The notes beneath the pieces were generated by a model. The model made no database searches. It was not told the origin of the DNA and saw only the letters and a program-made list of their open reading frames with translations. Positions 1 to 43,838 of a DNA stretch of 64,000 bases are shown piece by piece. A program made the position numbers and the translations under genes. Source of the stretch: Microthyrium microscopicum (lineage: Eukaryota); NCBI GenBank assembly GCA_010405405.1, contig MU004232.1, positions 577,481 to 641,480 of the forward strand, given 5' to 3'. How positions within the stretch are numbered: the stretch's first letter is position 1; every line of letters begins with the position of its first letter.

Positions 1-583
1 TTAGTATAGTCTTTTATTAAGATTACTATAATACTAGCAATATTATACTAAGGAATAAGATTTAAATCTTCTTCTTCTTTTAATACGTTAAAATCTTCTT
101 TATATAATATAGAGAATTAGTTTTTTTCTTACTATATTAAAGTTATAAATATATAGAAAGAAATAATATAGATATTAGAAGTATTCTTATCTTTCTTTTC
201 TATAACTACTTAGCCTTTATAATTAACTATAATAGAGTAGTATAAAGCTATATAGCCTTAGAAATAGTACTTAGAGTAGAAGCCTAATATTTACTAGCTT
301 TCTTAGAGTATAACTTTATACTTATTAACTTAAGGGTCTCTAAGGATAATATTATAGTTAGTAATTTTTATAATAAAGTATAAGACTTATTTAAGATAAA
401 TACTAATATATAAGGTAATAAATACTATATAAGTTATAGTAGTAATAATATAACTATTAGCTATCTTAGCTTAATATAGTCTTAATATTTTAATAGATTT
501 AAGACTATAAAGTTAGAGGTAATAAGAGTTAATAATACTAAATATACTACTACCTATATTAATAAAGATTTTTACTTTAGTAT

Positions 584-795
584 TATAAGGATCCTAGAGA
601 TACGGGAGCCGTAGTAGATTAAGATAGTATATTGAATGCAAAGCTAGGGAAGAGAGATCTAGAGCTACGGAAGCAAGCTGAAGTAGTAGATAGGATCCGC
701 GCACGGACCACCCGCACGTGACTATGACGTCACCGTGCAGGGGTAGCCCCTCCAGGGCAAGACCGCTGTCAAGCCTATGAAGAGGAATCATCACA
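584..795 (-). repeat. 3' LTR of the TRIM-like element
   Basis: Direct repeat of 4074-4285 with about 9 differences, all transitions. Adjacent to the PPT. Confidence 0.92.
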
Positions 796-1018
796 CGAGC
801 CCCCCTTTAAAATCAGTGCTCCTAAACTGAAACCTGCTCCTGCTTGCAAGAAGATCCTTTGAAAATTGACTGTGGAGTGGAAAACCTGCGGGAACCATGA
901 AGACAGGTAAAAAACCACTCTTTTGTTGTTATTGTGAAGCCATCGAGACGTACCGTGGATTGCCGTGTTTTGCCGGAGATCTTCCGCTTGGACCAAAAAT
1001 TGAATTTTGGGAATCTGC

Positions 1019-3692
1019 TAGTGATGCGGATTAAGGCACTTAATCCGTATGCCCTAATCCATAGTGTGCCCCGTTATAATACAGGTGTACTAGATCCGTA
1101 TAGATTAATGCATTTAATTAGTATAATAAGAGGACACGTAACGGATTTAGCATCTTTAGGACTTTATTAGGGTTAGTACAAGATTAGTCCTAATTAATCT
1201 CTCTCCTATTATACTATAATAACTTTATAAAGATTAGTCTTAACATTACTAAATAATTTTAATAGTATTTAGGTCCTAAAATAAAAATTTTTTAACGTCT
1301 ATATATTTATCTCATTATGCTCTATATAATAATACTAATCTTTTAGTAATTTAAAGCATATTTACATTATTAATCTACTTCTAAGAACACTACAATCTTT
1401 AATTAATTTCTTTACTATTATTTACTATATTACGCCGTAGAAGGCTAAATCAAACTCTATAAGAACGAGTAGATCTTCTATAATACTAGATATTACTCCT
1501 AAATACTAATATTACTACAACACCTTAATATTCCTATTACTATTACTAATATTAGCTAAATTGAAATTTTAATCGTTTTAAGAAATATACTCGTAAAGAG
1601 GGCTATCTTACAACTTCCTTATAAGCTCTACCCGCTAAGATTTAAGCTCCTATAGTAGTTTTACGTGCTTAAAAGCAAATACAATAAGACAAACGCTATA
1701 TAAAGAGGATTATTTAAGAAGCGCTTCCTTTGAATTCCTATAATAAAATATGTTATCTTACTACCTACGCGCATAAAGTTAAAAGCGCTTAATTAGTAGA
1801 TATTCCTACTTATTTACTACTATTAAGGCATTAAGTATTAGATCTTATTAAAGACATCTATAACAAGGATCTTATAAAGCTAAAAGCTATACTTAAATAC
1901 TAACTTTTCTTAAACTTCTTATTAGATAAAAGCGTAAATTAAGTAAGTTAATAGATAGCTAATTTCTATATTATAGTACTAGCACTTAGTTCTTTCTATC
2001 TTAAAGTCATTAATTTAGGTAGAGAACACGCTACAGCTATAGCGTTAACAATATATCTATTACACGCCCTAGAGAAGTAGACTAAAGAAGATTTTACGCG
2101 CGTTAATTTAATTAGCTCCAACACGTATAATACTATGCGTGCCGTTATAGATATGCTTTTAAAACACCCTTAAGAAGCCTTTAAGAAGTGTTCTTTTATA
2201 CTCTACGATTTTTATAGTCTTTAGCTTCTTATAAAAGATATTTTAAAAAGAATTCCTACTCTAGAAGCTATTTTAGCAAAGATTACTAAGCTTGTAGTCT
2301 AGTTTAGGACGAGGAAGCTATATTTTAGATAACTTTATAAGTTTTAACGTTAGAAGCTTATAGGTAGAACTTACGGTATTAGATTATTAGTAATTACTTG
2401 CTAGGGGTCCTAATTTAGTATTATTTAATTACTTTTACGTAGTAAGGCTATATTTAAAGCTTTTGCCTATTATATAAACGTACTAGGCAATACTACAGCG
2501 GCACAGGCTAAAAATAGACCAATTTTTAAGCTTATAAAGAGCTTATAGTTTTAGTACAATATAAGGTTCCTTTAACGGATTTGTAAGCCTCTTTACATTA
2601 CGTAAAAGAGCTTAGAGGGCTTAAAACACTATTTAGGCAAAGTAATTTAAAGGTAGAAGGCTATTAAAGCTAGCTAGTTAACACTTACTATAGAATATCC
2701 TAAAGTTACTAGAATTTATAGTATTTAATAAGAACTACTTTAATTTCTAGAGAAACGACTATAGGAGTAAATTACTAATAATAACTAACTAGCTAACGCA
2801 TTAAATCCCTCTACTATAAATCTTTTAAAACCTTTAGATATAAGTGCTTATTTAGCTTATCTTTAAGCTTTTGAAAGACGTTTTAAAGCTTATAATTCTA
2901 CGCTAAAAGATAATCAAGATAAAGCTTAAAAAGAGGCTAAAGAAGTTACTTTTGCATTCAGAGCTTTTAGGAATAAATAGGGTACTTTTATAATATCTAG
3001 TAATTAGGCTAAAGCATAGAATTACTAACAACTACTACATTTCTAAGAATGTCTTCAAATAGCTAGTCTAAAGTTATCTAGTATTACTATTAGGCTATTT
3101 AATACTATAGCTAACTCTATGCTCTCTAAAAGATCATTTTTAGTGATTAATTAGGTCTAAAATTCTTATTAAATATAATTAACTATAGATTGCGTAAATA
3201 TGTTAGTTTTTAGCTATATAAACAGCAAAAAGCTTAATTAGATAACAATATAACCTAGTACTTATTATATAGGTGGCGACCTATTTACACTAGTCTATTA
3301 GTATATATTTACTACTAATAAAGAAGACGCTCTTAATAAGCTATTTTATAAGCGCTAAAGATTAAATTCAATTAAGATAGAGGGTAGTAATAAAGATTAG
3401 CTAAATATATCTAATATTAAAGTTAAAGTCCGCGCTAGGGAAGAATTAACTTAGTAGGTATTAGCTAATATTATAAATTATATTTAAGAGTTGTAGCAAA
3501 TAATACTAGATTCTAATATAGGTCTTAACCTTTAAAACAATACTAAAAACATTATATTTAGTTAAGTAATTACAAAGTTATAAATTCTTCAAGATATTAA
3601 TGTTTTTAGTGAGCAGGATTCTAGCCCTCTGATTGGATAATTAGGTCTTAGCGGATTAACGGTATGCCCTCTAATCTAGAGCAGCATTACTA
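1019..3692 (+). mobile_element. hAT-superfamily DNA transposon with RIP-inactivated transposase
   Basis: 8-bp TSD GAATCTGC (1011-1018, 3693-3700); 9-bp TIRs TAGTGATGC / GCATTACTA (one RIP-type mismatch). De-RIPped + strand gives hAT motifs SDTCNTMRA (~2115-2143), CDSHGLQLLIKDIL (~2203-2245), ITRWGS (~2392) and ANSVPSERSF of the dimerisation domain (~3110-3140). Confidence 0.92.
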
Positions 3693-4073
3693 GAATCTGC
3701 TAACGTTCCCATCCCTTCTACTCCCATTATTTCGGTAGGATCCTGCCAACTACTAGTTCTTCTCGTCTCCTAAGGGACCACCCAAAAATCCTCTTAGGGA
3801 CCGTTTGTAGCGTCAGTACTCTAAGGAATAAACGTATATTAGGGAGTTTGGAATGTAGAGGAGTCGTTTTTGAATATTGGTGGGGCATGCGTCGACGCAG
3901 AGGCTATTTGGTAGTCCGAGCGTCCGCGGACACGTCATTGAATTTACGCGTTGAATTTCCGCGCTTTTTGGAATAGCTGCGCGCTCGCTTCGCGCGCTGA
4001 AGAGCCTATTCAAACCGATAGCTAGTTCCCGCGGGGTAAGCGCGGGAGTTGAAGTTTGAAGAGCTTTGCATTA

Positions 4074-4285
4074 TGTGAGGATCCTAGAGATACGGGAGCC
4101 GTAGTAGATTAAGATAGTATATTGAATGCAAAGCTAGAGAAGAGAGATCTAGAGCTACGGAAGCGAGCTGAAGTAGTAGATAGGATCCGCGCACGGACCA
4201 CCCGCACGTGACTATGACGTCACCGTGCAGGGGTAGCCCCTCCAGGGCAAGACTGCTGTCAAGCCTGTAAAGAGGAATTATTACA
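4074..4285 (-). repeat. 5' LTR of the TRIM-like element
   Basis: Direct repeat of 584-795. Followed on the minus strand by a PBS-like 11-mer at 4062-4072. Confidence 0.92.
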
Positions 4286-7170
4286 AGTATAGAAGCTATC
4301 TAAGAGAAAGATACTTCTTATAGTACTCTACTATTATTTTACTTTTAGAATAGTATTAGTTTCTAGTAATTAATTAATTAGTAAATAGGTAGTAAACACG
4401 CAAACTACTATTATACTATAATAAGGTTCTTCCTTAGATTTAGATTTACTTAAGTAAGCTTAAATAGCTTCTATCTAGTATTTCTTTTATTTATTTTATA
4501 CCTTATTAGAGTTTAGCTTATCTACGTATTAATATAGAGAAGCTACGCATTTCCTTAATATTAGCTATAAGTTAAAGGTATATTATTATTATCTTTTATA
4601 CTTAGAGTATAGTATAACTAAGAAGTATAAATTAAAGCTAATTTAGCTTAGATATTATTATTAAATATAGTATCTTTACCTTAGTAGAATATAGTTTTAG
4701 CTTATAGATTATAGCCTTTATTACTATATTATAGGTAGCGTTTTTCTTTCTTAAGGTATAAGAATAGAGTATTACTATAATATAGAATTATCTTTTAAGT
4801 ATTTTTATTTTTATTTTTATTTTTATTCTTATCCTTATTATTAAACTTCTTATAATTTAAGAAGTAATTAACTTATTATAGTTTCGTTATAAATTTAGCG
4901 TTTATAGTTACTTTACTAGTATAGAAATAGCTTATTAGCTCTTTAGTAATTATATTATATATATAAGTTAGTTTATTAGTATTAGATAAGTAAGCTTTAT
5001 TAGTTTTACTAGTAAACTTAACTAGGTAAGAGCTTAAGTTATTAGTCTTCTTTATCTTATTAAATAGATTCTATAACTAAAGGAGAGTAGCTTTACGCTT
5101 ATTAGTACTTTTAAAATAGTAATTAAGGTCGTTCTAAAACTCTACTATAGAAGTATATAGGTTAGGTATATTATATTAAGCGTAATTAATAATAAAGCTA
5201 ATAGTAAGGTCTTTATATTTACTATAAACCTAAATAGCTTAAGATAGCTTAGTAAGAAAAGTATATACTTTATAGTAAAGGTAGTCTTTAACTTTAAGCT
5301 TCTATTAAGGATATAAGTCTTACTTTTTACTATTATAAGTACTAAGATTTTACTACTCTTATATAGAGTTAGTCTTAGAGCTTACTAATACTTTTAAGAT
5401 AAGTATAGCACTCTTAGTATTAAGATAAAGATTTAAGTATAAATAGCTCTAAGAGGATAGTATAGTGTCTTCTTTATTAAAGTCTATTTAGTATACTAGT
5501 TTTTTAGTCTTATAGGTTAAGTTACTTAGTTAATCTTTAAGATCTTAGATTTTTCCTTTTAGAAGTATAATCTAATTACGCTTTTTAGTATAGAAGTTAT
5601 ATAGATACTTAATAATATCTATAACTCTAATTACTTTATAGTAATTAATTATATTTTATTCCTTAAGGTATAGTTATTACTTAATTAACTAATAAGCTTT
5701 ACTTATAATTTAAGTAGCTTTACTTTCTAAAGTATAGATATATTACTATAGAAGAGAATTTTGTATTATAGCGTTATTATATATAGTAGAGAGGTCTAAT
5801 ATACTATCTTTATTATATTAGTATTCTTTTAATAAATTTACTAAGTTAATATATATAGCTTTAAAAGTAATGCTTATAGCTTAGGTAGATTTAATGTAGT
5901 TATAGAATTATTTAAACTAAGTATTAGTATAAAAGCTAATACTATAAATAAAGCTTATTCTATCCTTAATAACTTCTAGCTCTATTTTGCCTTAAATATA
6001 GTAGAGTATAATAAGGTTAATAAGTATAGATCTAATCTTTCCTTCTAGGTTTAGAGACTCTTATACTTAGAATACTACTTAGTCTTATATAAGGTACGTA
6101 AAGATAATATAGGTTTAATCTTATAGAGTAATACTAATATATATTATAAAGTACTATAGATATTAACCTTTAAGAGTAATCTAATTAATTTAATCTTAGT
6201 CTAGTAGATATAGTTATACGTTATAATATACTACTTTCTTACCTTTATTCTTTTTAAATATATTCTAAGCGTTACCTTTAGGTTATTTAATAATATTTAA
6301 TAGGATTAGGGCTTAGGCTAGAGAAGGATAGTAAAAGTAGATAAAGGAATAGCGCTAGCTATAGCTATAAAGTAGTATAGGTATATTATTATTACTATTA
6401 AGGTTATTAATATTTAACTACTATATAGTAGACTAAGTCTCTTAGAGCTATTAAATTTTAGATTATAAGCACGTCTCTAACTAAAGACTACTAATTAGTT
6501 TGCTAGATATAGTCTATAAAATTAATATTATATAATAATAAGTAAGTAACACTAGTACGTAAGGTTTAGCTAAGGTCTTCTAAATAATTTACTTTATTAG
6601 AGTAGTAAGTTTAGAATAGAGTTTAAGCGTTTTATTTAAAAGTAATTCTTAATTTAGGTTTATTACTATTAATTTAAGTATATAGAAAGAGATATAGGTA
6701 TAGGACGAAGCTATTACTATAAGTCTAGTAGATATAGAGTAGAAGATGCTAAAATCTTCTTCTTAATTACTAATTAGTCTATACTAGTAGAGTTATTTAG
6801 TCCTTATACGTAAATCTTTACGCTAGTAGGGTTATTATTCTTATAGGTCTAAAGACCTATTTTTATATAGAATAGTAGATTTTAGACGCACAAATTATTA
6901 AATCTTATAATATTAGTAAGCACGTTTTAAAAAAAGGTTTTAAATATTAGAGTAATCTTAGTTTTATATTAGAGAGCTATAGATATAAGGAGTATAATCT
7001 AGATATAGATATAATTTAAGAAAACTAAGATAGAAAATCTAGAAGAGGGATTAGGGCTAATAGGAGATAAGCTCTATACTAGCTAAACCTTAGGCGCTAA
7101 GCCCTTAGTATTACGTAATAAGGATACTAGAGATCTTATAAAGAGATCTTAATAGAGAGGATCCGTAACA

Positions 7171-10100
7171 CTCTAAACCTAGTCTATTATAAGAGATAAA
7201 TATAACTAAAGGATTCTTATAGAATACTAATATATTTAGGCTAATTATAATGCTTAGTAGTTTTATATACCTTAGTACTAGCTTATAATATTTAAGATTA
7301 GAATAAAGATAGTAAAAGGCTACTTCTAGATAAAAGATTATTCTATATATAAATATAGGTAAGGTACCTATAAAAAAGAAAAGAAAAATTAACCTTTTAT
7401 TATCTTTTTTATAACTTTTCTTAATTATATTTATTTAAAGAAACTATTTATAAGAAATTACTTTTATTTATTATTAATTTAAGTAAACTATTATAAGTAA
7501 TAATAATTAAAATTAAACTTTTAGATCTTCTTAGTAATTCCTAAGACTATTACTAAGGTTATTTAAATATAATAAGCTATTTCTAAATCTTTCTAGTAAT
7601 TCCTAGAACTATTACTAAAAGCTTTCTTATAAAATATTTAATAGTAAGAAATAGGAAACCTAAATAACCTAAATTTCTAAGCTAACCTACTATTTTCTAG
7701 TTTTAAAATAATATAAGCCTAATACTACTTTTCTCTATTCCTTAGAAGATAATTAACTTTAAGAATCTAGTCCTATTTTTTTCTTTATATAAGTAAGCTA
7801 ATATACTTTTTCTTTATTAGAACTAAACGTAGTTAGTAAAGCTCCTAAATAACTTAAAAATAATATAGATAATAAGCTACTAGTAGAGCTATAAATAAAA
7901 GTAATAAGTAGTCTAATAACTACTTATATTAATTATATAGTACCTATACTTACTTTCTTTATTATAAATAAGTAATCTTATTTACTATTTAAGGTATAAT
8001 TTATATAAGCCTTATTAAATATAAAATTGCTCTTTATATCTTAAAAGACTATATAATTATACTAAGTAATAACTTCTTTATCTAAGAGCTTAAGTATATA
8101 GTAGTATTTATATTTATTATAATACTAGTTAAGTTAGTAACTCTAAATATAAGCTATAGCTACTTATAACTTATTACTATTAGATAATAAATTAGTTATT
8201 ACTATAGTAGCTAGCTTAGTCTAAGTAAGACTATACTTAACGTAATACTTAAGTAATACTAGGATTTCTTAAGAGATTTTAACTCTTTAATTCTAAAGAT
8301 TCTATAGAACTTAGATAAGCTTATTCTAAGTCTTCTTCTTATACGTTTATAGCTAGTAGTTTAAATAGATTAATTAACTACTTATTATAGTATAAGCTAT
8401 ATTATTAGGTAAATACTTATAAGTCTACTTATTAAGCTTCTTTAAGAGAGCTAAATAATAATCTAAACTAGGCTTTATCTTAATTTAAGGCTTAGATAAG
8501 GTCTTATATATATTATCTTACTTCTTTATAAGCTAATATAATAGTATCTTTATCTTTTCCTTACCTAAAGACTTAATATATTTTAGTTTATTCTTAGAAA
8601 TATTTAAGAAGCTAGTCTTACTAACTATATACTTATATATTTATAGAATACTATAAGTTTACTCTAGCTTAGGTATTATATAGTAATAATAGCCCTAACT
8701 ATATTCTTAGTTAATAACTTAGTATAAGGTTATTTTAAAGTATACTAAGTTATTTTAAATATACTAAAGTATATTTTTTACTACTTAAACTTAGGAATAT
8801 ATTATATTTTACTTTATATATACCTATATAGAATTAAGTAGTATAGTATTTAAGAAGTTATAGTCTAGACTAAAAGTATTAATAATATAAGTATTAAATA
8901 TTATAAATAGCTTAATCTTATTTTAATTTAGAAGACTTATTTCTTAAAGCTATTAAAGTATTACCTATATTAAAATATCTTCCTTAATAGAACTTATTTT
9001 TTATTTAGGTATTTCTTAAGTAGCTTATTTATAAGCTAACTTCTACTAATAAAAGAACTTACTCTTTAAGACTAAAGGATATTATCTAAACATAGGTAAT
9101 TATTTATAAGATTATTTTATTTTAGAATTAATATTATAGTAGCTTATAAAAGCTTACTAGTAAGCCTCCTTAGAAGAAGGATTTAAATAGCTAATACTCT
9201 ATTAATAACTAGATCTAACTAGAGAAAGTAAAAAGTAGTTATTATTATTCTTTATACTTAGGAATCTTAATATACTACTTTATTAGCTATAAGCTTTAGC
9301 TAGAAAAGATAAATATATAAATATATTTATAAATAATTATAGACGTTCTTTAAAATAAGGTTAAGTAACTAGACTTAGAAATTAAGTAGTAAAACTTAGA
9401 GCTTACTATAAAAATTTAGCTTAATTACGCTAAGCCTAAGAAACTTAAGAGTAAGTACTATACTTTCTAGATATTTTTAAAAATAATATAGTTAGCTTAG
9501 TATAAGGAGCTATCTTAAAAAGCTTTTATAATTAAGAGCTTAAGAAGAATTAAGGATTAAAGAAGAGGAATATATAGAGCTACTTATACTTAATAATATT
9601 AAAAGTATAAGAGAGAATCTACTTCTACTAGCTTAAAGTATTATAGAAGTATAATAAAAAAGAAGAAAAGAAGATAATAAATTATAAAGCTTTATAGATA
9701 TAGGATTAAGCTCTTATCTTATATTTATTTAGACTAGTAATTACTACCTAATTCTTTATTACTACCTATATATTACTTCTTATAAACTTTATTCTTTAAG
9801 GCCTTAGAGCATAGGTTATATATATCTCTTACTAGATTAAGTAGCCTTAATATATCTATATAAACTTCTTATAATTCCTTAATTTACTACTATTAATAGC
9901 CTCTATATAAATAAATCTTCTTAAAAAGATTAAGAACTATAAATACTTAAGTACTATTTATAATAGTTTAACTTAGATCTTAAGAAAAATCTTAGAAAGA
10001 TAATTCCTTAAAGATTACCTTATAGTATAACTAAAGTAATAGCTCTAGACCCTAAGTAAAAATTCTTTATTAATTATTATAATATTCTTTTTATTTTACT

Positions 10101-10260
10101 TATTTATTAAAGCTATAACTATAAGATTTATAATCTTAGAAAAGTTTACGTTAATAAGAAAGAATATTATAATAAAGAATATATTAAGGGATTAAATAAT
10201 CGTAGGACCTAATTAGGAATAATATAATTCCCTAATTAGCGTATCCTAAAAACTATATTA
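7171..10260. mobile_element. Heavily RIP-degraded repeat, possibly a Mutator-like DNA transposon
   Basis: Very AT-rich, TpA-saturated, sharp boundary with normal-GC sequence at ~10260. Faint de-RIPped LLC.WH-like (~8806-8830) and SWIM-like (~9245-9285) motifs on +. Hairpin-containing end at 10208-10246. Family assignment is weak. Confidence 0.5.
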
Positions 10261-11993
10261 GGCCCTTAGACTCCCATAGTAATTAACCACGCTTTATTTC
10301 TCATATTCTTACAACATTGTCTACATGTACCAACGCACGGATGTTGCTTCTCATCATCGCCTCCCAAGCCACCACCAATCAGAGTCCTCAGCCCCGCAGC
10401 GTACCTGACTACCAGTTGACTCCCCAGCTCTCTCTAACTTCATCTCCTCCATCCACCATTCAAGCATGTTTTGGGACTTGAGGCTGCCTACTAACACTTC
10501 CAAGTGAGCTCGAATATTGCCTCTGATCTCCCTCCATGCGAATTGAGCAATTAAAGCTTCAACGCAGCGCCACATGAGCCCCGGGTATAATATAGTCTCG
10601 GTCAGCGCTTACCATGTCCAATTTTCATTCTACCCTTGCGCAGCGGGATAAGATCTTGACTGGCTTCTGCACGAACTTAGGCTGAAGAGCTAGGAAAAGA
10701 AAGTGGAATGTCTCACTTGGGTAGTACCTTCCAACATATTCTCTCCATAGCAGGTGCATAAAAACATATCAATGGAGATTGCAATTCTACAAGCGACTTT
10801 CGATGCAATAGTGCTTCATGACCCAAAGTGCTGCACACGCAAATTACCGAAGAAGTAATCTTACTGGACTAAATAATCCCGTTTTGGCAAGTATCTACAT
10901 CATCCCAGGATGGACATGGCGATGTTACAGACGTCGTCCTCAACTCGGGAATCGTCAGTCACTGATGTATCGCTTTCTCTCTTGGTACATGCAACTTAGC
11001 AACTTCTCTTGCTTACATCGAGTATACTCAAACCCTTCAAAGGGGCAGTCTGATCATTAGCACCAATCTCAACTCCTTCCAACCCGTCCCTGTACACACC
11101 CTTATATGGCACATTTACATGCTGAAATTCTCTGAATATTTTTCAACTCCAGCTCAACTATTGATCTTTAGTCTCAAGGCGTCCATAAACTCCTCTGGCA
11201 ACTTCCCACTCTAGCAACATGTGCCTCTTCACACAGCAAAGTGGTGTTTGGCTGATCAAGTAACTCCAAGGCAAAGCTGCAGAGCGTGTGGGTATAAAGT
11301 CTCTCCACCACCACTCGAACACTATCTTTCTTACATCCACTTTCAAGACATTCTTGAGCAACCAAAAATCCATTTCACCAAGGTCTAGTATTCCCACAAG
11401 TCAACCCTCCAAAGACACACTCTTATCACAATTCTACGGAGCTTTAAAAGGCTTTTAGCCCCAAAAACAAGGTAGCAAGACTTCTCAAAGTCCGAAACAC
11501 CCAAGATCTAAATACCCAAATCACAGGTTGCCCCAGGCAGCCAAAAATTTCTCATTCTCCTCTCACACCCACCCTTAACATCGAAATATCACCAGCAGAT
11601 CCAGCAGCTTCATTCCAGTGTCCGTCTGGTCTCCTTCCGAGATTAGAAGCGGATACTGGCTTCATTGAGTCTTTGAGTAAGTCACGACTCACGAAATCAT
11701 CAACACTTATTTCCTCCAAAAGATCTGCAATTCACTCGAACTTTCCCACATCCACGATTCAAAAACATTCCCCCCACAAAAGCTTTCTCCAGAATCCACT
11801 CACACCACCAAGTACTATTTCCTCGAGCTCCTCAACCACTAAAATCGAACCAAAAGCTACCCTCCATCTCGCCAACCTTTATCTACGATACCTTCGCCCC
11901 AGAAACCACCCAAATCTCTACAAATCAAATCGAACTACCACCCTTATCATCGCCGACATTCCTTCAACAACTCCTCACCTCGAAATCAGAGTA

Positions 11994-14900
11994 ATGGCTG
12001 CCAACAAGCAATTTGCAGGCTTCGATCCAACTGATGACGACAATGACATAGCCGGCGAGATCACCGCGCCTCAAATGATCAGCTCTGAGCAGCCGAACAA
12101 GGCAGCGAAACCAGTTAGACGCATTGCGCCTATGACAATTACCTCAATCTCAAGCTCCGAAAAGCAGGAAATTCCTGGAAAAACAGCAAAAGAGCCGACT
12201 CCTATCGAATCAGCCGGGAACCAGAGCACTTTGAATCTACCAGCTGCTCAGGTGTCTACCATCGCATCTGATGGTAAATCAGGTCTTGCGAAAGAGCATA
12301 CTGCGAAAGAGCCTGCCGCGTCAGAAACTGGCAAAGAACCGGCAAAACAGACTCCAAAGGAGCCTCCAGAGCCGCCGGGAGAGCCGCCGGGAAAGCCGCC
12401 CGCCAAGGAAATAGCACTTCAACCCGCAGAAGAGCCAGCTCAAGAACCCGCAAAGGAACAGCCAGTGGTGGATGAAGTTGTACCATCCATTGAAAATGCC
12501 TTGGGACAATCAGCAAATCAAAATTCTGCTGATATTGAGATGTCCGATGCACCTTCTTCCAGCACAAACATCTTGAATAATCAACCAGATGTTGATATGA
12601 CGGATGCCCCTCCAGCTCCGGCAGTCAATTTCGAGGGTCGCGAGATCATTGATTTGGACGATGCTGATGACATTGCAATTGGTGGTGATGATAATGACTT
12701 CAGAATTTCCGATGCCTGGGGCATTATGAAAGATTTGCAAGGCCAACAAGAGAAAGAAACACAAAATGACTTCCAATTGGCACTGGAAAAAATCCAGGAG
12801 GAGGCTATGCGTGAAGCAAATCAACGAATTCTGGATCCTTTGGTGCGCTCAAAGCGTTCCAAACCTTCTAAGCGAGGTAAGATCCCCCCCAAATACCCAT
12901 ATTTCTTGACGATATTGGACAAGATCAAAAACGTCGCGGCTCCCATCGCATTCGATGGCTACCATCGCACTCGATGGTGGTTCAGCTTGTTGCGGCAGGT
13001 CATCTTGGAACAATAAATTATCTTTTCAAAGCGTGTCCACAAGCAATTTCACTCTCCAGGCGTGCTAACTAACAGATTCAAGTCCGAGATGACGACGATG
13101 ACGACGACGACGACGACCATTTGTACCACTCTTTCGAATTCGACGCCGCCGGCGATGAAGATGCTGTGATCTTCAAACGCGAAATGCACAAATTTCTTCA
13201 GAAAGAAAAGCAAGGCAAGCTAGGGTTCCTTGAGGATATTGAGTGGTCTCGCATCAAGAATCAAGAGCGTACTCGTCGCGAGAAGGTCAAGAATGATCGA
13301 ATACGTGAAGCCTACGAGCAAGAAGAAGAGCTGGCACGCGAGGAAGATCGTAGCCCCAATTTTGACCACATCAAGAAGAACTTCAGTCTGTACCACAATG
13401 ACGATGCTTCAGGCTTGTTCGTCCCTTTGAGCTCAAATCTCGGCAATGTTCGTGGCTCAATGCAGGATCTTCAAATGTCTGATAACGAACAGACATCTCC
13501 ATCTCCATCGAGCAATAGAACAGGCAAAGCTCCGAAAGCTCGGAAGAGTCCTACCGAGAAACGTGTGTCAAAGGTTAAGAAGAGCACGATCAAAGCCCTG
13601 GTAAGAGTTCCCTGCAACAATCCAAAAAAATCCAATGAGTCTAAATATACCGCGGCTCCCGTCGAATTCGATGGATCCACAGTGCATTTTACTGCTCATA
13701 TATAGTAATCTTAAACTAACAAATTCCAGGCTGGGACAATGCAGGAACTCGACGAACGAGACAAGCGCAAGACGGGAAAACGCGCAAAGACAGGTGGTAC
13801 CCGCAAAGGAAAGTCCAAAGCAAGTGGCAAAAAAGCTGCTACGGAAGATGATGATGAAGACGAGTCGGACTTTGCAGTGCTAGGCACTGCAAAAAGCCGC
13901 AAGAAGAAACCGCAAACTGCAAATATCGGAAGTTTGTTTAAACCAACAGACGTATTCAACCGGAGCGAGCATCTCGCAGTGGGCGAGACTGATGAAGGAC
14001 GACTCGGCATGCAGAAAGGCAGAAAAGACGTTGCCTTGAAAAACCTTATCGCTGGTATTCCTCTTGATCGTCAAGAAACAGCTAAAGTTGATAGTCGCCA
14101 CCTTCTGCAAGCCAGTAGCAAGTTTGACGGAACCGGTGCATGTCGTTCAGATGATACTGGTTGGAAATTGAAGGGAATGGTCTCTACCCTGAGACACTTC
14201 CAGATGCTAGGCGCTAGCTGGTGTCGTGAGCGAGGTAAGGTACATTCTTGCTGAATTTCAGTGCTTTTCGCTGACAGATATCAAGAGCGAGACAACGATG
14301 TGAAAGGGGGCCTCATCGCAGACGATATGGGGATGGGCAAAACAATAACAATGCTGGCTAACGTGGTCAATGGCCTACCTCCAAAAGCTTTTCACGGCGT
14401 TAGAGCTACGCTCATCATCTGTCCCAGCTCCCTCGTCGATCAGTGGATGTCTGAGGTGCGCAAACACTGCGATTTGAATCATTTGGGACAGGTATTGCGC
14501 TATAACAACCCAAAGCCAGGCTTGTCAATGTCCCTCGACGACATAGGCATGCTTTCCTCTGCCAGCATAGTGATAAGCACTCATAACGCTGTCGTTCGCT
14601 CCTGTCCCAAGATCACCTTCCCGAAGCACCTTGTAACTCAATTGGACAAGGAGAAATGGTTGTTTGACAATAGGGAGAAGTTTCGTGGTCAGCTCCATCG
14701 TATAGAGTGGTGAGTTTGACCCAAATAACGCTTTGGTGATCATACAGTAACGACTTTAGGCATCGTGTAGTCATTGATGAGGCTCATGTTCTCAAGAATC
14801 ATTTGTCACTGACTTCTCTTGCAATGCGAGAACTAATGGCTAAACACAAATGGTAAGCTAACTCAGTCTCATATCACATTCTTGACCACATTCGAAATAC

Positions 14901-17552
14901 TCCAAACCGAGTGGCGCTTACCAGCACATGTGACGGCTTATATGGGGATGTGTTTCCATAAGGTGCTATGGTTTCCGCCAGATGTGACGGCTTCCTTATC
15001 ATCTCTTCTGGTTTGCCTTGAAGGTTTCATTTGATCTTTTTATCGAACCTTGCTGACGTATGTGTACAGGTGTATTACAGGAACGCCGATTCACAATTCG
15101 CCCAAGGTAAGTTTTGATCGTGTGATGGCTCCCATAGCATTCTATGGCTACCATAGAACGCGGTCCGGGTTCGTGCTGAGAAGACTATTTGGTCTTTTCA
15201 GTGCAAATTGGCTTCGGTTTTACTCTTCCGTTATTTGACACTAACAAATCTCAGGAACTGTATCCATACTTCAGGTTCCTAGGAGTCAAGCATACTGGGG
15301 ATTTCCGAGTGTAAGTTCCTTCTTGCACGCATCTTTTGATGACACCATATCATGTTGTAGCTCCCATAGCACTCTATGTGTGCCATAAAGAGCGAGAGTA
15401 TTTCCAGCTGATAGACCAAATGATCTTTGGGCACTTGGGCTTAGTGGACATATTTCGCTTCTCAGACTAACAGAATTAGGTTCTGTCATAACTATGACAC
15501 CAAAAGCACTACCGGTCAGAACCGCCTACTCGCGCAGTTGAACAAGATCATGCTTCGACGAACTTACGCAGACTCCATGTTGGGGGAGGCAAGAAGACCT
15601 CATTACCATGATGCGCATGATTCTAACGTTAGAACAGGCTCTAGTCAAACTACCTCGCACAAGCAAGACGGAGACTTGGGTTACTTTAAACCGTAAGGAT
15701 CCCTCCGAGTAGATTGACTTGAGGTTTTTAGACGACGTTGAAATTATTACTTTCGTGGCTTTCCTCACACTTGATGGTTCCCATGACATGTTGTGGGATC
15801 CATCAGGAGCGCAAATCATCAAAACCGCCCGAGTAGACTTCTTTTGCCAATTGAAACTGACAAATTTCTAGCCGTCGAGCGTCAAGTATACACCGTTGTT
15901 CGAAACCGAATCATTGAACAGGCAAGCAATTTTGGAAAGATGTGTCTGCTTCACGTTACTTATCTAACCTTATTTTTATACAGATCAATAGCATGGTTCG
16001 GACCAATGCTAATCCTGCAGGTGGATTATCCCATTGTATTTTCACAATGATTTTACGTCTTCGCCAGATTACCAGTCACATCTTGCTTATCGAAGAGCTC
16101 ATGAAGGATCTGCTCCTGCCTGCAGACATTGCTAGTCTCGAAAAAATCAGCCAGACCTACTATAACACCGTGGCAGATCAGAAAACTATCGACACCATTC
16201 TTGCTTTGCGCCATGCTCTGAAATCCCACGAGAAGTGGCAGAAATCGACCTGTGAGGATGAAGATGACTTCCAGAACGAGCTTGCTGCTAAAGAATCCGG
16301 TCTGCGAACCGAAACCATTGGCGGCGGCTATGGTCTTGCTTACAACTTCAGCGAACTTCTCAGCAATCTGAAAAAGAACTCGCGCTGGGAAGAATTTCAC
16401 GACACGTACAAATGTATTGGCTGTCAAAAAGAAAAACCGGACCAAGCGAGAATAACAACGTGTGGGCATATGTATTGCGAGCCATGTGCTTTTGGTCTAC
16501 TCGTGAAACATGCTGGTCAAGGTGGAGTCATTGCACGCTGCGATGAATGCGGTGTCCAATTTGACCGTCTGGAGACCTGTGAGGCACACCCTTCCCTTAT
16601 GATATCATATCTAACTGAAAAAATAGTTAACACCAAAACACTTGAAGTCGGCTCCGTTGATACTACGCCCTTCTTGAACGACGATGGCTCCGAGCCAGAG
16701 ACAGAAGCTAGCAGTTCGCAAGGCAAGAAGCCCAAGAAGGTAAGATTTTCCATTGCCCTGATTCCATGAGGTTAAAACGAAATACTGCATTGTTCCAGAG
16801 CATTTTATGGCTACCATAGCTCTATATGACCAGAAATGCTCATATGTGAAAATTATACTGATGCTTCCCAGGCTCGACGAAAGAAAGACCGGAAGGCCGT
16901 ACCAAACTATTTAGCCGAGGAGCCTCTCCCATCAAGCAAGACTTTAGCTGTCAAGTGCCAGATCTTGAATTGGATTGAAGAAAATCCTGCCACGAAAGTC
17001 ATAATCTTCGTCCAATTCCTTGGCATGATCGAGATCCTCAAGCAGCTCGCTGCGGCCGAAGGCTGGCCAACTCTCCAATACCACGGCTCTATGACCATGG
17101 AGGAACGCACCAAGGTGATTGATGTGTTCGACAGCCACCCCGGCCCATGTATCTTCATTGCCTCCCTCAAATGTGGAGGAGTGGGTCTGAATCTCACCAT
17201 GGCATCCAAGGTCATCATGCTAGAACCCTGGTGGAATTGGGCGATCGAACAACAAGCCTTTGGTCGTATCTTCCGGATTGGGCAGAAACAGCAAACAGCA
17301 CTGCTTCGTGTGTTTGCGAAGGACACCATTGACGAGCGCATGTATCAGATGCAGGAGCAGAAGAGTGCCAAGATTGATGCGGTTATGAAGAACCAAGGGA
17401 AGAACATGGCGCCAAGCGAGCTGTTGAAGCTGTTTGGTAATATCCAGTCTGGTGATGATGGCGAATACTTCGTCATGTGTGACGAGACTGCACCCGCGAA
17501 GGCACCAATGTTCGAAGACGGTGCATATCTGCAGTGGGATACGGAGAAGTAG
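11994..17552 (+). CDS. SNF2-family ATPase with inserted RING finger (RAD5/RAD16/ULS1-like), 12 exons
   Basis: Motifs GGLIADDMGMGKT, VIDEAH, ITGTPIHN, MLRRT, RING (C..C...CGH.YC..C...C..C), SLKCGGVGLNLT, EPWWN..IEQQAFGRIFRIGQ. Frame-consistent introns: 12877-13082, 13601-13729, 14235-14285, 14710-14759, 14853-15069, 15107-15254, 15311-15479, 15589-15637 (GC-AG), 15693-15871, 15922-15983 (GC-AG), 16740-16871. Confidence 0.92.
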
Positions 17553-17980
17553 GTGCTACCTGTGGGCCAAGTTGAAGGATGAAGAGTTTTGAAACTGGCG
17601 GTGTTGCGGGAGGAGTGTGGTGAAGAAACTCGACAAAAAAAAATTAGTGTACGGTGTTGGCAAACCTTAAGCTTGCGATTGTAGTTGAATCAATGTAAGG
17701 TTGGGTTATTACTATGATCTTCGAAAATCAGTTTTGTGTATATCCAGGTCCTCGAAGTTCTGCTGGTGAGCGAATGCATGAGCATTATCCCCATCGCGTC
17801 TACCATAAGAGCTGCCATCGGGCATCGCACGCGATGGAATATGTTCCTCTTGAGCTGAGATCACGAACATCTTGCTGAATGTCAAAAGTAGCGTAGCATG
17901 CTCATTCGAATCGCTAAATCCTACAAACACTCATACGACTACAACATGAAACGCCGAACAATCAAACCATCCATCATACT

Positions 17981-19686
17981 TTACAAAATTTCATAAGGCT
18001 CCTTCCCCTCCCCAAACAACAAATGCGGCTTCCGCTTCGCAACATCAAGCACAGTCTGCGCAAACACGGAATTAGCCCAGGCGAACCAACTTCGTGTTGT
18101 ATCGCCTCCGAACATGACATGCACACTCTCGTTGATCAGTCCCAGACTCGACACATTCCGCACTGCTTCAATACACCTGCTAATTTCTATATCATCCTCG
18201 CTCGTCATGGCCTGCAACAGCACGCTCATCGGCCATGCATGCTGTAGTCCAATATGTGGACCGCCGATGCCTGCAAAATTTGCGCCTTTGAGGTAGTAGG
18301 GGTTGCCAGCCTGGCTAAGGACCATACGCCGCGTGTTTTGGTAGACCTCGTTGGAAGAGGGCAGGAAGCCCATGAGGGGAAGGGCAAGAAGGGAGGGGAG
18401 ATTAGCGTCATCCATGAAGATGCGGCTGCCGTAGCCGTCAACTTCGTAGGCGAAGACACGGCCGAAGACAGGGTGAGTGAAGACTGCGTGGTCCCAAATA
18501 CCCTTTTCGATAGATGCTGCAACTGATGCCATCTTTTCGTGCAATGCGGTCGTGTCTGCGTCCTTCTTGGGAGCAGACTTGTTGAGGAGCGCGGCGGTGG
18601 CTTTGAGCTCGACGGCCATCATAGCATTCGCGGGGACGAGAAAGCCAAGGATGGTGGCATCATCAGAGGGCCGGAAGGCGGAGCGGATGAGCCCGGTGTT
18701 ATTGGCGAGCGGGTTGCCGACGCCAGTAAGGGATAGGGTTTCAGTGCCTGTGTTGGTGTTGCGCTGGAAGGTGTACATGTTGCGCTCGTAGTCACCGTTT
18801 TCGTCAAAGGTGGAGCGGGCTTGGGCTTCGAGGGTGTCCATGATGGTGTTGGCGGCTTTGAACCAGCGCTTGGTCAGGAAAGCCGTGGATCCAGTGGAGT
18901 TATGGAATTGGTTGGAGAGACGAAGGAAGGCAGCGAGACTATCTAGTTCCCATTTGCATTCAAAGACTCTGGATGGTTCGTAGAAGGGGTGAGTTGAGTC
19001 CATTTGGCCATTGCCGGTCGGATCAAGACCTGAGGGGGGTGGCGGTTGGAAAGCATTGCAATATGGACTTTCGATGACATATTCAGCTTGGGTATTGATT
19101 GCACCGAGGATCAAGTTCTCGAGAGCTTTGTCTTTCTTTGCCAGAGTCTGATACTGGGCTAGCTGATTTGTAGAGTCTCGAAGCCATTCAGCATTGATGT
19201 CTCCAGTCACAATGAATGACTGAGGACCTTCCCATTTGCCTTCATTCAAGCTATAGTATGTGTCCGAGTAGGCCTTTGATCGCTCCTTCTTTGGCTGAGT
19301 TCCATCAACATGCCATCGCACAGTGGTGTCCAGAGTATTGGGAAACGCATTTTCGAAGAGCCGGGCAATATCCTTGTCCTGTATTCTCTCGTTCAAATCT
19401 TGTATGACTGTTTCGACTAGGGGCGACGAAAATGTGCGGCATTGGGGAGCGGGTCGTTGAAAGGGCAGTCGTAGTGTACCGAGCGAGAAGGGAGGGCTAT
19501 TGGGTATTAGCAGGAGCGCAACGGCACCCGTATTGTCATTACTTACTGTTGATGTGAGGAGTACGAACGATAGTCAGGACAAGCTGCCGCATATCTCTCT
19601 TTATCCATGAGCGGATCTTGCTGAAGCGCACCAAGCGCATGAGCGCTGGTCGCAATTGCGCTCGCAACAGTCACATGGAGCAACAT
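17981..19686 (-). CDS. Glycoside hydrolase family 125 (DUF1237, exo-alpha-1,6-mannosidase-like), probably secreted
   Basis: Motifs TGDINAEWLRDS, ECKWELDSL, FRPSDDA, MDDANLPSLL, GGPH, RSWFAWANS. Hydrophobic N-terminus from ATG 19686; intron 19497-19546. Confidence 0.93.
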
Positions 19687-40811: not shown

Positions 40812-40984
40812 TGAGACTTATGCGGAATGAAAAGACATGTCGAATAGAATAATGTTATAGATACTCAATGTACACCTGATTAGAATCTACTTCAACTCAC
40901 TTGCATACGACTTGTACATCATGATTGGTACAGTGTACTTGATATTTTCCCGTTATCAGTTAGTTCTATCTGCGCTTTCTATAA

Positions 40985-42500
40985 TTGCGCATTTTGGCTG
41001 CAGCGCATTTTTGGTGTGTAGCGCATTTATATAGAAGTTATCTTGGTGGGGTAGCGCATTTATATAGAGCGCATTTATATAGAGCGCATTTATATAGAGC
41101 GCATTTATATAGAGCGCATTTATATAGAGCACATTTATATAGAGCGCATTTTTGGTGAGCAGCGCATTTTGGTAAGCAGCGCTACACACCATAAACGCGC
41201 TGCTCACCAAAAATGCGCTCTATATAAATGCGCTCTATATAAATGCGCTCTACCAAATTGCGCTGGGCTGCACGCAAATTGCGCTGCCATAGCTACCCCA
41301 CCAAGATGGCTTCTATACAAATGCGCTACACTATAATGCGCTCTACACCTAAATTGCGCTGCACACCATAAATGCGCTGCCCACCAAAATGCGCTATACC
41401 AAAATGCGCTGGGCTGCACGCAAAATGCGCTGCGGTAGCTTCGCGAAGCTACCCCACCAAGAAGGCTTCTCTATAAATGCGCTGCAACACCAAAAGTGCG
41501 CTCTATATAAATGCGCTACCCCACTAGGATAGCTTCTATATAAATGCGCTGCAACCCCAAAATGCGCTCACCTAAATTGCGCTGGCTGCACGCAAAATGC
41601 GCTACTCTATGAATGCGCTCTATATAATTGCGCTCTATATAAATGCGCTACCCGCCAAGATGACTTCTATATAAATGCGCTGCAACACCAAAAACGCGCT
41701 GCACCCAAATTGCGCTGCACACCATAAACGCGCTGCCCACCAAAATGCGCTGCCCACCAAAATGCGCTGCCCACCAAAATGCGCTGCCCACCAAAATGCG
41801 CTGCCCACCAAAACTGCGCTCTCTATAAATGCGCTGCCATAGCTTCACTAAGCTACCCCACCAAGAAGGCTTCTATATAAATGCGCTGCAAGTTCAACAC
41901 CAAATTGCGCTGGGCTGTACGCAAAATGCGCTACACTATAAATGCGCTCCACACCAAAATGCGTTGAGCTGCACGCAAATTGCGCTGTACACCATAAATG
42001 CGCTCACCACAAATGCGCTCACCATATTTGCGCTCTACCAAAATGCGCTGAGCTGCACGCAAATTGCGCTGTACACCAAAAATGCGCTGCCTCACTAAAC
42101 ATGCGCTCACCAAAACTGCGCTCACCAGAAATGCGTTCACCATATTTGCGCTGCCCCACCAAAAATGCGCTTCACTCAGCACCAAGTCTGCGCTCACCAT
42201 ATTTGCGCTGCCTCACTAAATTGCGCTCTAACAAACTGCGCTCTACCAAATTGCGCTATACACTGAGTCTACGCTCACCAAATTTGCGCTGCCCCACCAA
42301 ATTGCGCTGCACCAAATTGCGCTCTGCACCAAAAATGCGCTCACCAAATTGCGCTCCCCATAAATGCGCTCCCCATAAATGCGCTCCCCATAAATGCGCT
42401 CCCCATAAATGCGCTCCCCAGTAATGCGCTCCCTATAAATACGCTCTGACAAGAGTGGGCTCTCTATAAATACGCTCTGACAAGAGTGGGCTCTCTATCT
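40985..42500. repeat. Complex satellite array built on the core AAATGCGCT (units ~15-20 bp), orientation switching at ~41180
   Basis: Dozens of aaatgcgct/aattgcgct cores; near-perfect 15-bp tandem AGCGCATTTATATAG at 41052-41148; 17-bp tandem at ~41730-41820; 15-bp tandem at ~42350-42425; 31-bp duplication at ~42433-42497. Confidence 0.95.
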
Positions 42501-43146
42501 GGGACTCATGTTTGTATATCATGAGATTCTCTGATGTAGCGTGGCATATCTTTTTGTTCATCACCTACTCCTTCCCCTGATTCTCCATATGCTGCATTTA
42601 TAGGACCAACACGAATGATCCGGAAGCCACTTCACGAATCCCTCCGACACTCTGCCGTAAATTTCATCGAATCAGAAGACTGTAATCCACCGCCAGTGAG
42701 GTACATGAACCAATAGGATCATATTCGGGCTCCGGGTCATGCTCAAAAGTCAAAAAAAGCTTTTTTGGCCTTGACTCATCTATCCATATCATGGAAGTAA
42801 TGATAGAGTGGCATGTGTAAGAAGGACTTCTCGAAATTTTTCGAATATTTTGATGTTTTGATGTGGAAAAAAGCACTGGCAATGCTACATCTGCAGCGGT
42901 GAGCCTTATGTTATGTTATGGGACGAGGAGAGCCGATGGCGAAGCGTCTAGCAGCTCATTGGCTACGGGAAGGTGCTTTGGTGGGTTTGGATGGTGTAAA
43001 AAGTCCTTGGTAGGAGCTACTTTGGGGCTAGAGAGCTTGAGGTGATTCTGGGTTACGTTCTAGAATGGTTTACTTTGTCACTATGAAAATATTGGACTGT
43101 GAACATTGCATTGTTGGTCGTGGCTTTTCTGTGAACGTGTTAAGGA

Positions 43147-43265
43147 AGCGCATTTATAGGAAGCGCATTTATCATGAACGCATTTTTGGTGAGCGCATTT
43201 TTGGTGAGCGCATTTTTGGTGAGCGCATTTTTGGTGAGGCAGCGCATATTTGGAGAGCGCACTTT
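43147..43265 (-). repeat. Second block of the GCGC-core satellite, inverted relative to 41190-42430
   Basis: GAGCGCATTTTTGGT tandem copies plus AAGCGCATTTAT variants. Confidence 0.93.
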
Positions 43266-43516
43266 TGCTGTAGCGAAATCTGATTCAGAGTACTTATCAA
43301 TACTTATTGTACCCAGCATTGAACGGACCGACCTCGTCTGAACTACTTATCGGCTGCGTGCCCCTTGGAGTCATTGCATCAATGGACAACATAATTCAAG
43401 CATCTCTGCTCATGAATTCCAGCCTTATCCACACATGGCGATGTAGCAATGATATGGTCACCGGATTCATGGGGATTTGGCAATCGCAATAATCTGGTCA
43501 GTAAAAAATCTGGACA

Positions 43517-43838
43517 GAATCACCCCCGACGGGAAACATCACACTTGATTCGCAATATCGCATTTGAATGGCAATGTCGCACTTGATGGGCGATATCACA
43601 CTTGATGGGCAATATCACACTTGATGGGCAATATCACACTTGATGGGCAATGACGCATTCGATGGGAAATATCGCATTCGATGGACAACATCACATTCGA
43701 TGGAAAATATCGCAGCCAATGGGTGATATCGGATTCGATGGGTACTATCGGATTCGCTAGGTACTATCACATTCGGTGGGCAATACCGCGTTCGATGGGC
43801 AATACCGCATTCGATGGGACATGTCGCACTTGGTATCA
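43517..43838. repeat. 19-bp palindromic minisatellite, ~17 copies, consensus ATATCGCATTCGATGGGCA
   Basis: Regular 19-bp period; core ATCG-N4-CGAT alternates with ATCA-CACT-TGAT. Confidence 0.93.

Follow-up and report, generated by a model that had tools for sequence, protein, structure and literature searches.

According to published work, the systems closest to the one treated here are the introner-like elements (ILEs) of Dothideomycetes, which are multi-copy introns about twice as long as regular ones, structured, and marked by compensatory changes, and which degenerate in both sequence and length towards ordinary introns (PMC3609843). The same source describes same-gene duplications (SGDs) of introns, half of which are unexplained by exon duplication and are ascribed to transposition within one transcript, as well as three fungi in which seeming multi-copy introns are repeats inserted in regular introns (PMC3609843). 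From Hypoxylaceae, internally symmetrical introns that proliferate without flanking duplications are described (PMC8469720). The locus compared with these systems is the SNF2-RING gene of Microthyrium microscopicum, a Dothideomycete of the order Microthyriales, located in a window of 64,000 nucleotides (GenBank assembly GCA_010405405.1, contig MU004232.1, positions 577,481 to 641,480 of the forward strand; all coordinates below are those of this window). The gene has 12 introns of two length classes, seven long (129-217 nt) and five short (48-62 nt), and most of the long ones bear a palindromic motif with a 19-bp period. We give about an even chance to the reading that a single intron-sized sequence multiplied within this gene, in an introner-like manner or by same-gene intron duplication, and that the long introns are its degenerate sister copies. 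The kind of system is already described; what is unusual is the presence of five to seven sister introns in one gene, with a 19-nt hairpin module that is common with a minisatellite, and none in the neighbours.

Like ILEs, the long introns are canonical spliceosomal introns that are two to four times longer than the surrounding regular introns, and they combine symmetrical hairpin-forming sequence with compensatory changes, mutual sequence kinship, and decay towards ordinary introns. The host is likewise a Dothideomycete, and the positions appear uninterrupted in homologous database reading frames. Unlike ILEs, which number in the tens to hundreds, nearly identical and scattered over unrelated genes, the introns considered here sit in one gene and are moderately alike; moreover, their folding energy is not clearly below that of shuffled sequences, and their core is common with a non-intronic tandem array. 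The comparison follows the descriptions of ILEs in PMC3609843, in PMC4457414, and in van der Burgt et al. 2012 as cited in PMC3609843. The sequence-only reading of this locus, made before the present analysis, knew of no described system matching it; fungal ILEs (PMC3609843) and sister introns (PMC8469720) do match. Literature searches returned no report that links introners to Microthyrium or Microthyriales.

In common with SGDs, related introns are found in one gene, and the exons between them, which are parts of one SNF2 domain, are not duplicated. The exons are consecutive and non-repeated and encode one SNF2/RING/helicase protein collinear with its homologues, so the option of intron transposition within the same transcript applies. 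SGDs, however, are few (at most 16 introns per species) and have ordinary length and folding energy, whereas here five to seven introns are involved, all of them long and hairpin-bearing. The sister introns of Hypoxylaceae, including stwintrons, offer a further parallel: they form a proliferated, internally symmetrical family that integrates seamlessly and without duplications on either side, function on the coding strand only, and lose their symmetry in older copies (PMC8469720). They differ in having terminal inverted repeats of 45-55 nt that span the intron and many nested twin introns. In comparison with them, the symmetry of the M. microscopicum introns is confined to a small internal hairpin of 16 nt, recurring every 19 nt, and neither terminal inverted repeats nor a twin structure is seen. 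Some introners of algae and other eukaryotes are non-autonomous DNA transposons, in which an intron-sized insert brings or creates splice sites. An intron-sized insert with splice sites is what the present introns resemble as well; however, a search of the seven long-intron ends for marks of the transposon type, such as those of miniature inverted-repeat transposable elements, revealed no duplication beyond AG (3/7) and no terminal inverted repeats, and the list of inverted repeats compiled for the gene has none that spans the ends of an intron.

The gene has a transcribed span of 11648-17700 on the plus strand, which is supported by Pfam matches, a spliced contig of the public run X5, and NCBI protein P0001. 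The matches to PF00176 (E = 2.7e-19) and PF00271 (Helicase_C, E = 8e-20) are strong, and that to the RING family PF14634 is weak (E = 1e-3, under the cut-off). The C-terminal exon is 100% identical to P0001, a protein of 1190 aa from M. microscopicum, and the next-best relatives have about 36% identity across the whole protein. The annotated coding sequence (CDS) extends from 12540 to 17552 on the plus strand, with an upstream ATG in the same frame at 11994, and the spliced open reading frame (ORF) counted from the latter is intact and 1372 aa long. Upstream of the annotated start, the reading frame remains open over some 1.1 kb (11448-12540), and the transcript-like X5 contig starts at 11648. 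Since this contig thus includes the in-frame ATG at 11994, the database model (1190 aa) may fall short of the true protein (1372 aa) by about 182 residues.

All 12 segments are true spliced introns of one gene. Four public runs were aligned to 11400-17700 for splice evidence. In run X5, one contig of 6504 nt aligns to the exons without a mismatch and leaves out the 12 segments, and none of the 12 joints is present in the DNA run X3, which is a possible source of the window. Run X5 is RNA by guess only and was taken as transcript-like because its contig is without all 12 introns. Runs X6 and X7 contain short identical pieces only and thus provide no independent relative. The junctions of P0001 agree with all 12 introns, and excising them yields one open frame; intron boundaries were placed inside the alignment ambiguity of the spliced contig. 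That the segments belong to one gene, as the sequence-only reading had proposed, is therefore confirmed by both the spliced X5 contig and the P0001 junctions. Its count of eleven introns has to be corrected to 12, since a 48-nt intron at 16579-16626 had been missed and the intron it numbered 11 is in fact the 12th.

All introns are on the plus strand, and all seven long ones have GTAAG...CTRAC/CTGAT...AG ends. Intron 1 (12877-13082, 206 nt) is delimited by contiguous X5 pieces and by the P0001 junction between KR and VRDD, and its core (12938-12977) consists of two perfect hairpin units with 6-bp stems and 4-nt loops, 19 bp apart. Intron 2 (13601-13729, 129 nt) has one unit (13659-13674), and its segment 13651-13674 is 92% identical to 12935-12958 of intron 1. 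Intron 6 (15107-15254, 148 nt) has its core at 15127-15165 and a second hairpin of 13-14 bp at about 15172-15203. Three units are found in intron 7 (15311-15479, 169 nt; 15345, 15364, and 15383) and two in the last one, intron 12 (16740-16871, 132 nt; 16795 and 16814). The units of intron 9 (15693-15871, 179 nt; 15762, 15781, and 15800) are degenerate (71%), which makes it a marginal member. The membership of intron 5 (14853-15069, 217 nt) is weak: its unit 14956-14971 may be inverted, and its units 14921 and 14975 centre on CACATGTG, which is another palindrome. The only links of intron 5 with the family are this possibly inverted unit and the box ATTTGRTCTTTT, common with intron 6; in the whole window the box has just two matches with 1 mismatch, one in each of these two introns, at comparable distances from the core.

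The short introns 3 (14235-14285, 51 nt), 4 (14710-14759, 50 nt), 8 (15589-15637, 49 nt), and 10 (15922-15983, 62 nt), as well as the 48-nt intron, are all without the motif. The joint of intron 8 (15586>15636) is ambiguous by 4 and was set by its GC..AG ends together with the P0001 junction between LGE and ALV; that of intron 10 (15917>15980), which lies at the P0001 junction between IIEQ and INS, is also ambiguous by 4. Thus, two of the five short introns have GC-AG ends with GCAAG donors. The 48-nt intron is supported by the X5 pieces 15980-16578 and 16627-16737 and by the P0001 junction between LET and FNT. It lies inside the RING-bearing exon, has a length that is a multiple of three, and contains no in-frame stop; if retained, it would insert 16 residues with the frame kept.

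The motif is real and far above chance, and it is less even than first described. Searching the window for CCATCG-N4-CGATGG with at most 2 mismatches gives 10 matches versus 1.44 ± 1.06 expected, and 0/100 shuffles reach 10. Four of these matches are in long introns (12943, 12962, 13659, and 15132), three in the tandem array (43.67-43.74 kb), and the others are at 12259, 17822, and 22524, the last being unrelated. A palindrome scan (at most 1 mismatch between arms, plus CCAT or ATGG) finds 9 matches. The long introns, 1.8% of the window, hold 6 of these. Of the 16 units listed, many amount to half-sites and only 7 have at most 1 arm mismatch. The motif coordinates and strings given in the sequence-only reading are correct. 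As for its 19-bp periodicity, lag 19 has the highest autocorrelation over the full long introns (0.309), and among them Tandem Repeats Finder detects a 19-bp period only in intron 1 (score 66). In the flanks the value at lag 19 is 0.279 and not the highest, and the idea that the long-intron flanks are decayed 19-nt arrays was excluded, as they contain no lag-19 signal.

Kinship was evaluated by local alignment to the intron-1 core (12938-12977) against 2000 random 180-nt segments of the window, for which the 99th percentile is 20 and the maximum 21. The clear members are introns 6, 2, 12, and 7 (scores of 47, 32, 28, and 24, respectively), and all 2000 random segments score below them; further alignment scores from this test are 36 for intron 7 and 40 for intron 12. 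Intron 9 is marginal, with 22 against the intron-1 core, next to the null maximum of 21, and 13 when the intron-6 core serves as the reference. A clearly related core is thus present in five long introns (1, 2, 6, 7, and 12), with intron 9 perhaps the sixth. The earlier assignment of the motif to all seven long introns stands for these five, is borderline for intron 9, and lacks support for intron 5 (score 14), while the claim that the short introns are without it is borne out by all five, including the missed 48-nt one (scores 8-12 against the same core). Short intron 3 was also considered as a shrunken member and rejected, because the five 8-mers it has in common with the long introns are at chance level (0-6 in control introns). 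Identity among the copies is about 70-92% in the core and near random in the flanks, so that the core is the best-kept part of the intron, far better than the remainder. In 5/7 long introns the one to three hairpin units lie about 50-70 nt from the donor; overall this distance is not fixed (25-103 nt), and neither is that from the branch point. Compared with the intron-1 core, sense orientation is favoured in introns 2, 6, 7, 9, and 12, with intron 5 being ambiguous.

The long introns also stand apart from the introns of neighbouring genes. The comparison set comprised 15 plausible introns of other window genes, hand-picked from a noisy list of 259 candidates; 13/15 are shorter than 100 nt, and 0/15 have a motif match. 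After removal of the 40-60 nt core, the long introns still measure 90-160 nt, two to three times the local norm. With 12 introns in a CDS of 4.1 kb, the gene has an intron density of 2.9 per kb, and the neighbouring genes (ORFs of 530-1013 aa) have 0-1 evident intron each. A GTAAG donor is found in 7/7 long introns, in 1/5 short ones, and in 9/15 predicted introns of the neighbours.

Regarding the age of the intron positions, 27 non-NCBI ORFs from a protein search were examined for gaps, all about 36% identical to the protein of the window. Three of them, each a single ORF of 1004-1033 aa, come from JGI contigs (P0062 from one of 61 kb, P0083 from one of 5 kb, and P0084 from one of 23 kb), and their alignments pass without a break over the positions of introns 3-12; among the 40 matches listed, P0084 ranks 2nd and P0062 8th by bit score. 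No gap is found in 14/14 ORFs spanning introns 5 and 6 and in 20/20 spanning intron 9. Judging from their V/L starts, intron-like leader peptides, and contig sizes, these ORFs appear to be unspliced calls on DNA. Because they are uninterrupted and the intron density is far above that of the neighbouring genes, the comparison points to a putative lineage-specific burst of introns in the SNF2-RING gene. A metagenome scan for orthologous DNA gave 80 loci, each too distant to be of use for intron positions (identity no higher than 52% on short stretches and near 36% along 100 aa), and the read-through ORF of exon 2 and intron 2, used as bait for unspliced ORFs of relatives, had no match. ORFs P0060, P0063, and P0068 start just after the position of intron 4, and this short intron may be older and shared with some homologues. 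ORF P0055 starts about two residues after the position of intron 6, which could reflect a nearby intron in that organism.

Copies of the core also exist outside introns. A two-unit, 39-nt copy is located in exon 1 on the plus strand (12236-12274; scores 20-21, and 27 on the plus strand versus 17 on the minus strand); this copy remains in the spliced transcript, where it belongs to the 5' untranslated region (UTR) under the annotated start and would be coding sequence were translation to begin at the ATG at 11994. Downstream of the stop codon, by about 250 nt, a degenerate copy occupies 17787-17837, where the gene overlaps its convergent neighbour. The largest is a tandem array of 15.5 copies of a sister 19-bp unit, ATCGCAYTYGATGGGCAAT, at 43527-43838 in repeat-rich intergenic DNA, where each arm of the palindrome measures only 4 bp and the decay of the two CpG sites is not strictly coupled. 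At least 7 other contigs of the source assembly match the 40-bp core in the source DNA run, and the depth bin over the core is 6257 versus 1077, which by simple arithmetic corresponds to roughly two dozen further copies. The core dimer pattern has 0 matches in prokaryote genomes and 0 in viral contigs. Since the position weight matrix was trained on the intron units, its scores on those units are circular and only matches elsewhere were used.

According to RNAalifold, the sole helix retained across the seven long introns is the first 6-bp stem with its 4-nt loop. Its two inner pairs occur as CG in 4 introns and AU in 3, and as GC in 4, AU in 2, and GU in 1, and neither is broken in any of the 7 introns. 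Taken together, the 16 units have 76% of their cells paired. Their covariation score equals 0.321 versus 0.200 ± 0.041 for shuffles, 3/500 of which reach it, and it falls sharply when the partner is slid, although counts this low also arise among related sequences in 5-25% of trials when no constraint acts. In addition, the units are mutually related, and as few as two independent double changes may explain the inner-pair pattern. The observation of the sequence-only reading that both arms change together is thus upheld as seen, and it is not decisive for related units.

If the long introns are sister copies, one intron-sized sequence would have been copied repeatedly within this gene in the lineage of M. 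microscopicum, every copy bringing a set of splice signals of its own (GTAAG donor, CTRAC branch point, and AG acceptor) and keeping one to three 19-nt units foldable as a 6-bp stem with a 4-nt loop. The copying may have proceeded via RNA, with the excised intron being reverse-spliced into the same transcript or locus and then subjected to reverse transcription and recombination. The hairpin might aid persistence or reinsertion of the excised intron, and the core might derive from a genome-wide 19-bp minisatellite family. Reverse splicing is the RNA route proposed in the literature for ILEs, and an RNA-mediated route would account for sense-oriented copies, for junctions that are seamless, and for their restriction to a single transcription unit. 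Multiple alignment of the seven long introns hints at weak similarity along their length, and the summed similarity of the 3' flanks is 266 versus 237 ± 10, which 1/300 shuffles reach. The relics of an intron-associated mobile sequence considered in the sequence-only reading are the best supported of its options. The proposal of a cis-multiplying intron family, in which a hairpin-protected intron reverse-splices preferentially into the transcript or locus of its own gene and needs the hairpin module, preserved through compensatory changes, for self-propagation, would give this gene its five to seven sister introns and leave the neighbours with none; it is considered unlikely.

A number of results weigh against the origin of the long introns by copying. 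The summed similarity of the 5' flanks is 233 versus 218 ± 9, a value reached by 20/300 shuffles, and few 8-mers are common to the long introns outside the core. The earlier statement that the rest of each long intron is unrelated to the others is thus nearly right. With flanks almost unrelated, the core must be either constrained or younger than the introns. Intron 5, with its score of 14, is at noise level (35% of the null scores at least 14) and is not demonstrably a member of the family, and the GTAAG donor is weak as a family mark, being common among the predicted introns of the neighbours. The core is found outside introns, namely in the array, in exon 1, past the stop codon, and on other genomic and transcript-like contigs, and the flanks of its off-gene copies agree poorly (0.47-0.67). 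When a profile of the seven introns was run over the 64-kb window with nhmmer, the matches were the introns themselves and the array only, with none in other genes; spread across unrelated genes, the hallmark of introners, therefore lacks support here. Whole-intron folding is barely beyond that of shuffles (z = -1.01, -1.38, -0.92, -3.25, +0.13, -0.69, and -0.81 for introns 1, 2, 5, 6, 7, 9, and 12, mean about -1.1), with intron 6 and its second 13-14-bp hairpin being the exception, and the short introns have z from -1.36 to +0.29. There are 7 G·U cells versus 10 A·C cells in the stems, i.e., no sign that pairing was selected in the sense RNA. Finally, the homologue ORFs are also uninterrupted at short introns 3, 8, and 10 and at the 48-nt intron, so loss in other lineages may account for the pattern.

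The main rival, which we regard as possible though doubtful, is a short dispersed repeat, either two or three units of the genome-wide 19-bp minisatellite or a small non-autonomous element, that landed secondarily in pre-existing introns and survives only where it is tolerated, i.e., in long introns, in the non-conserved first exon or 5' UTR, and in the 3' region; the introns would then not be copies of one another. It agrees well with the array at 43.5 kb, built from the same unit family, with the roughly two dozen poorly flanked copies on at least seven other contigs, with the copies in exon 1 and past the stop codon, and with intron flanks that are nearly unrelated and show no 19-nt periodicity, and repeats inside regular introns have a precedent in three fungi (PMC3609843). 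However, it leaves unexplained why nine copies gathered in one 6-kb transcription unit with none, except the array, in the roughly 45 kb that other genes and intergenic DNA occupy in the window, and why five of five clear copies have sense orientation. The excess length that remains after core removal requires either a longer insert or unusual pre-existing introns, and the uninterrupted positions in homologous ORFs imply that the host introns are themselves lineage-specific gains. The sequence-only reading had named a similar density of the motif in random long introns or intergenic DNA as evidence against its proposal; this applies in part, since the motif does occur in the array and on other contigs, but the other genes of the window are without it.

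Regarding the hairpins as such, they may be a selected functional part of the RNA, serving the splicing of long introns, a platform for an autoregulating RNA-binding protein, or a stable intronic or small RNA, which is compatible with either origin of the introns and which we find improbable. The core is far better conserved than the remainder of each intron, the inner pairs are kept in 7/7 first hairpins through three sequence types with a covariation that only 3/500 shuffles reach, and the motif is concentrated in one transcription unit, all of which suits such a role. Nevertheless, relatedness of the units alone yields as much covariation in 5-25% of trials and two double changes are enough, G·U is not in excess of A·C, the distances from donor and branch point vary, and units also occur in the intergenic array and in other transcripts. 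The Rfam search returned two sub-threshold matches (E = 0.26 and 0.68), neither on the motif, and gave no support for a snoRNA or miRNA. Template switching at quasi-palindromes can also restore symmetry through mutation alone. Phased DNA sites, spaced by 19 bp and bound by a dimeric protein acting on the chromatin or transcription of the gene, were likewise among the earlier options and would suit the palindromic form and the tandem spacing; this explanation is very improbable. Its half-sites change in concert (TCG/CGA, TAG/CTA, TCA/TGA), which a sequence-specific protein would not tolerate, the arms of the array palindrome are only 4 bp long, and the copies preserve their orientation with respect to transcription, whereas orientation has no bearing on a DNA site that is palindromic. 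Because both half-sites change together, base pairing is favoured over a protein reading a fixed half-site, and the compensating changes of the inner pairs argue for the former.

Other features of the window were recorded as well. The X5 contig continues about 1.9 kb beyond 17700 and covers the convergent gene at 17984-19573 on the minus strand (window 17552-19590); the 3' ends of the SNF2-RING gene and this neighbour probably overlap or were co-assembled. Adjoining the 19-bp array is a compound minisatellite of about 2.3 kb (40980-43270), with the 9-mer AAATGCGCT / AGCGCATTT every 15-18 bp, whose blocks are present in both orientations and form long inverted repeats with 78-94% complementarity. 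Positions 1-10400 are an AT-rich block with 20-31% G+C versus 42-53% elsewhere in the window, full of short AT-rich tandem repeats and devoid of long ORFs. This block, which adjoins the SNF2-RING gene on its 5' side, resembles a decayed repeat or a region affected by repeat-induced point mutation (RIP).

The origin of new spliceosomal introns is argued from indirect evidence, with fungal ILEs being the main model and the mechanism of their spread unexplained. A gene with several sister introns side by side is a compact test case for intron gain, and this locus could address whether copying takes place within the transcript, whether the hairpin is a working part, and whether the short GC-AG introns are decayed copies. 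If the core is an ordinary dispersed minisatellite lodged in introns, the case is one of routine repeat biology. If cis-multiplication is true, the locus would be a gene-sized natural record of a mechanism of intron gain that has been proposed for fungi and never observed.

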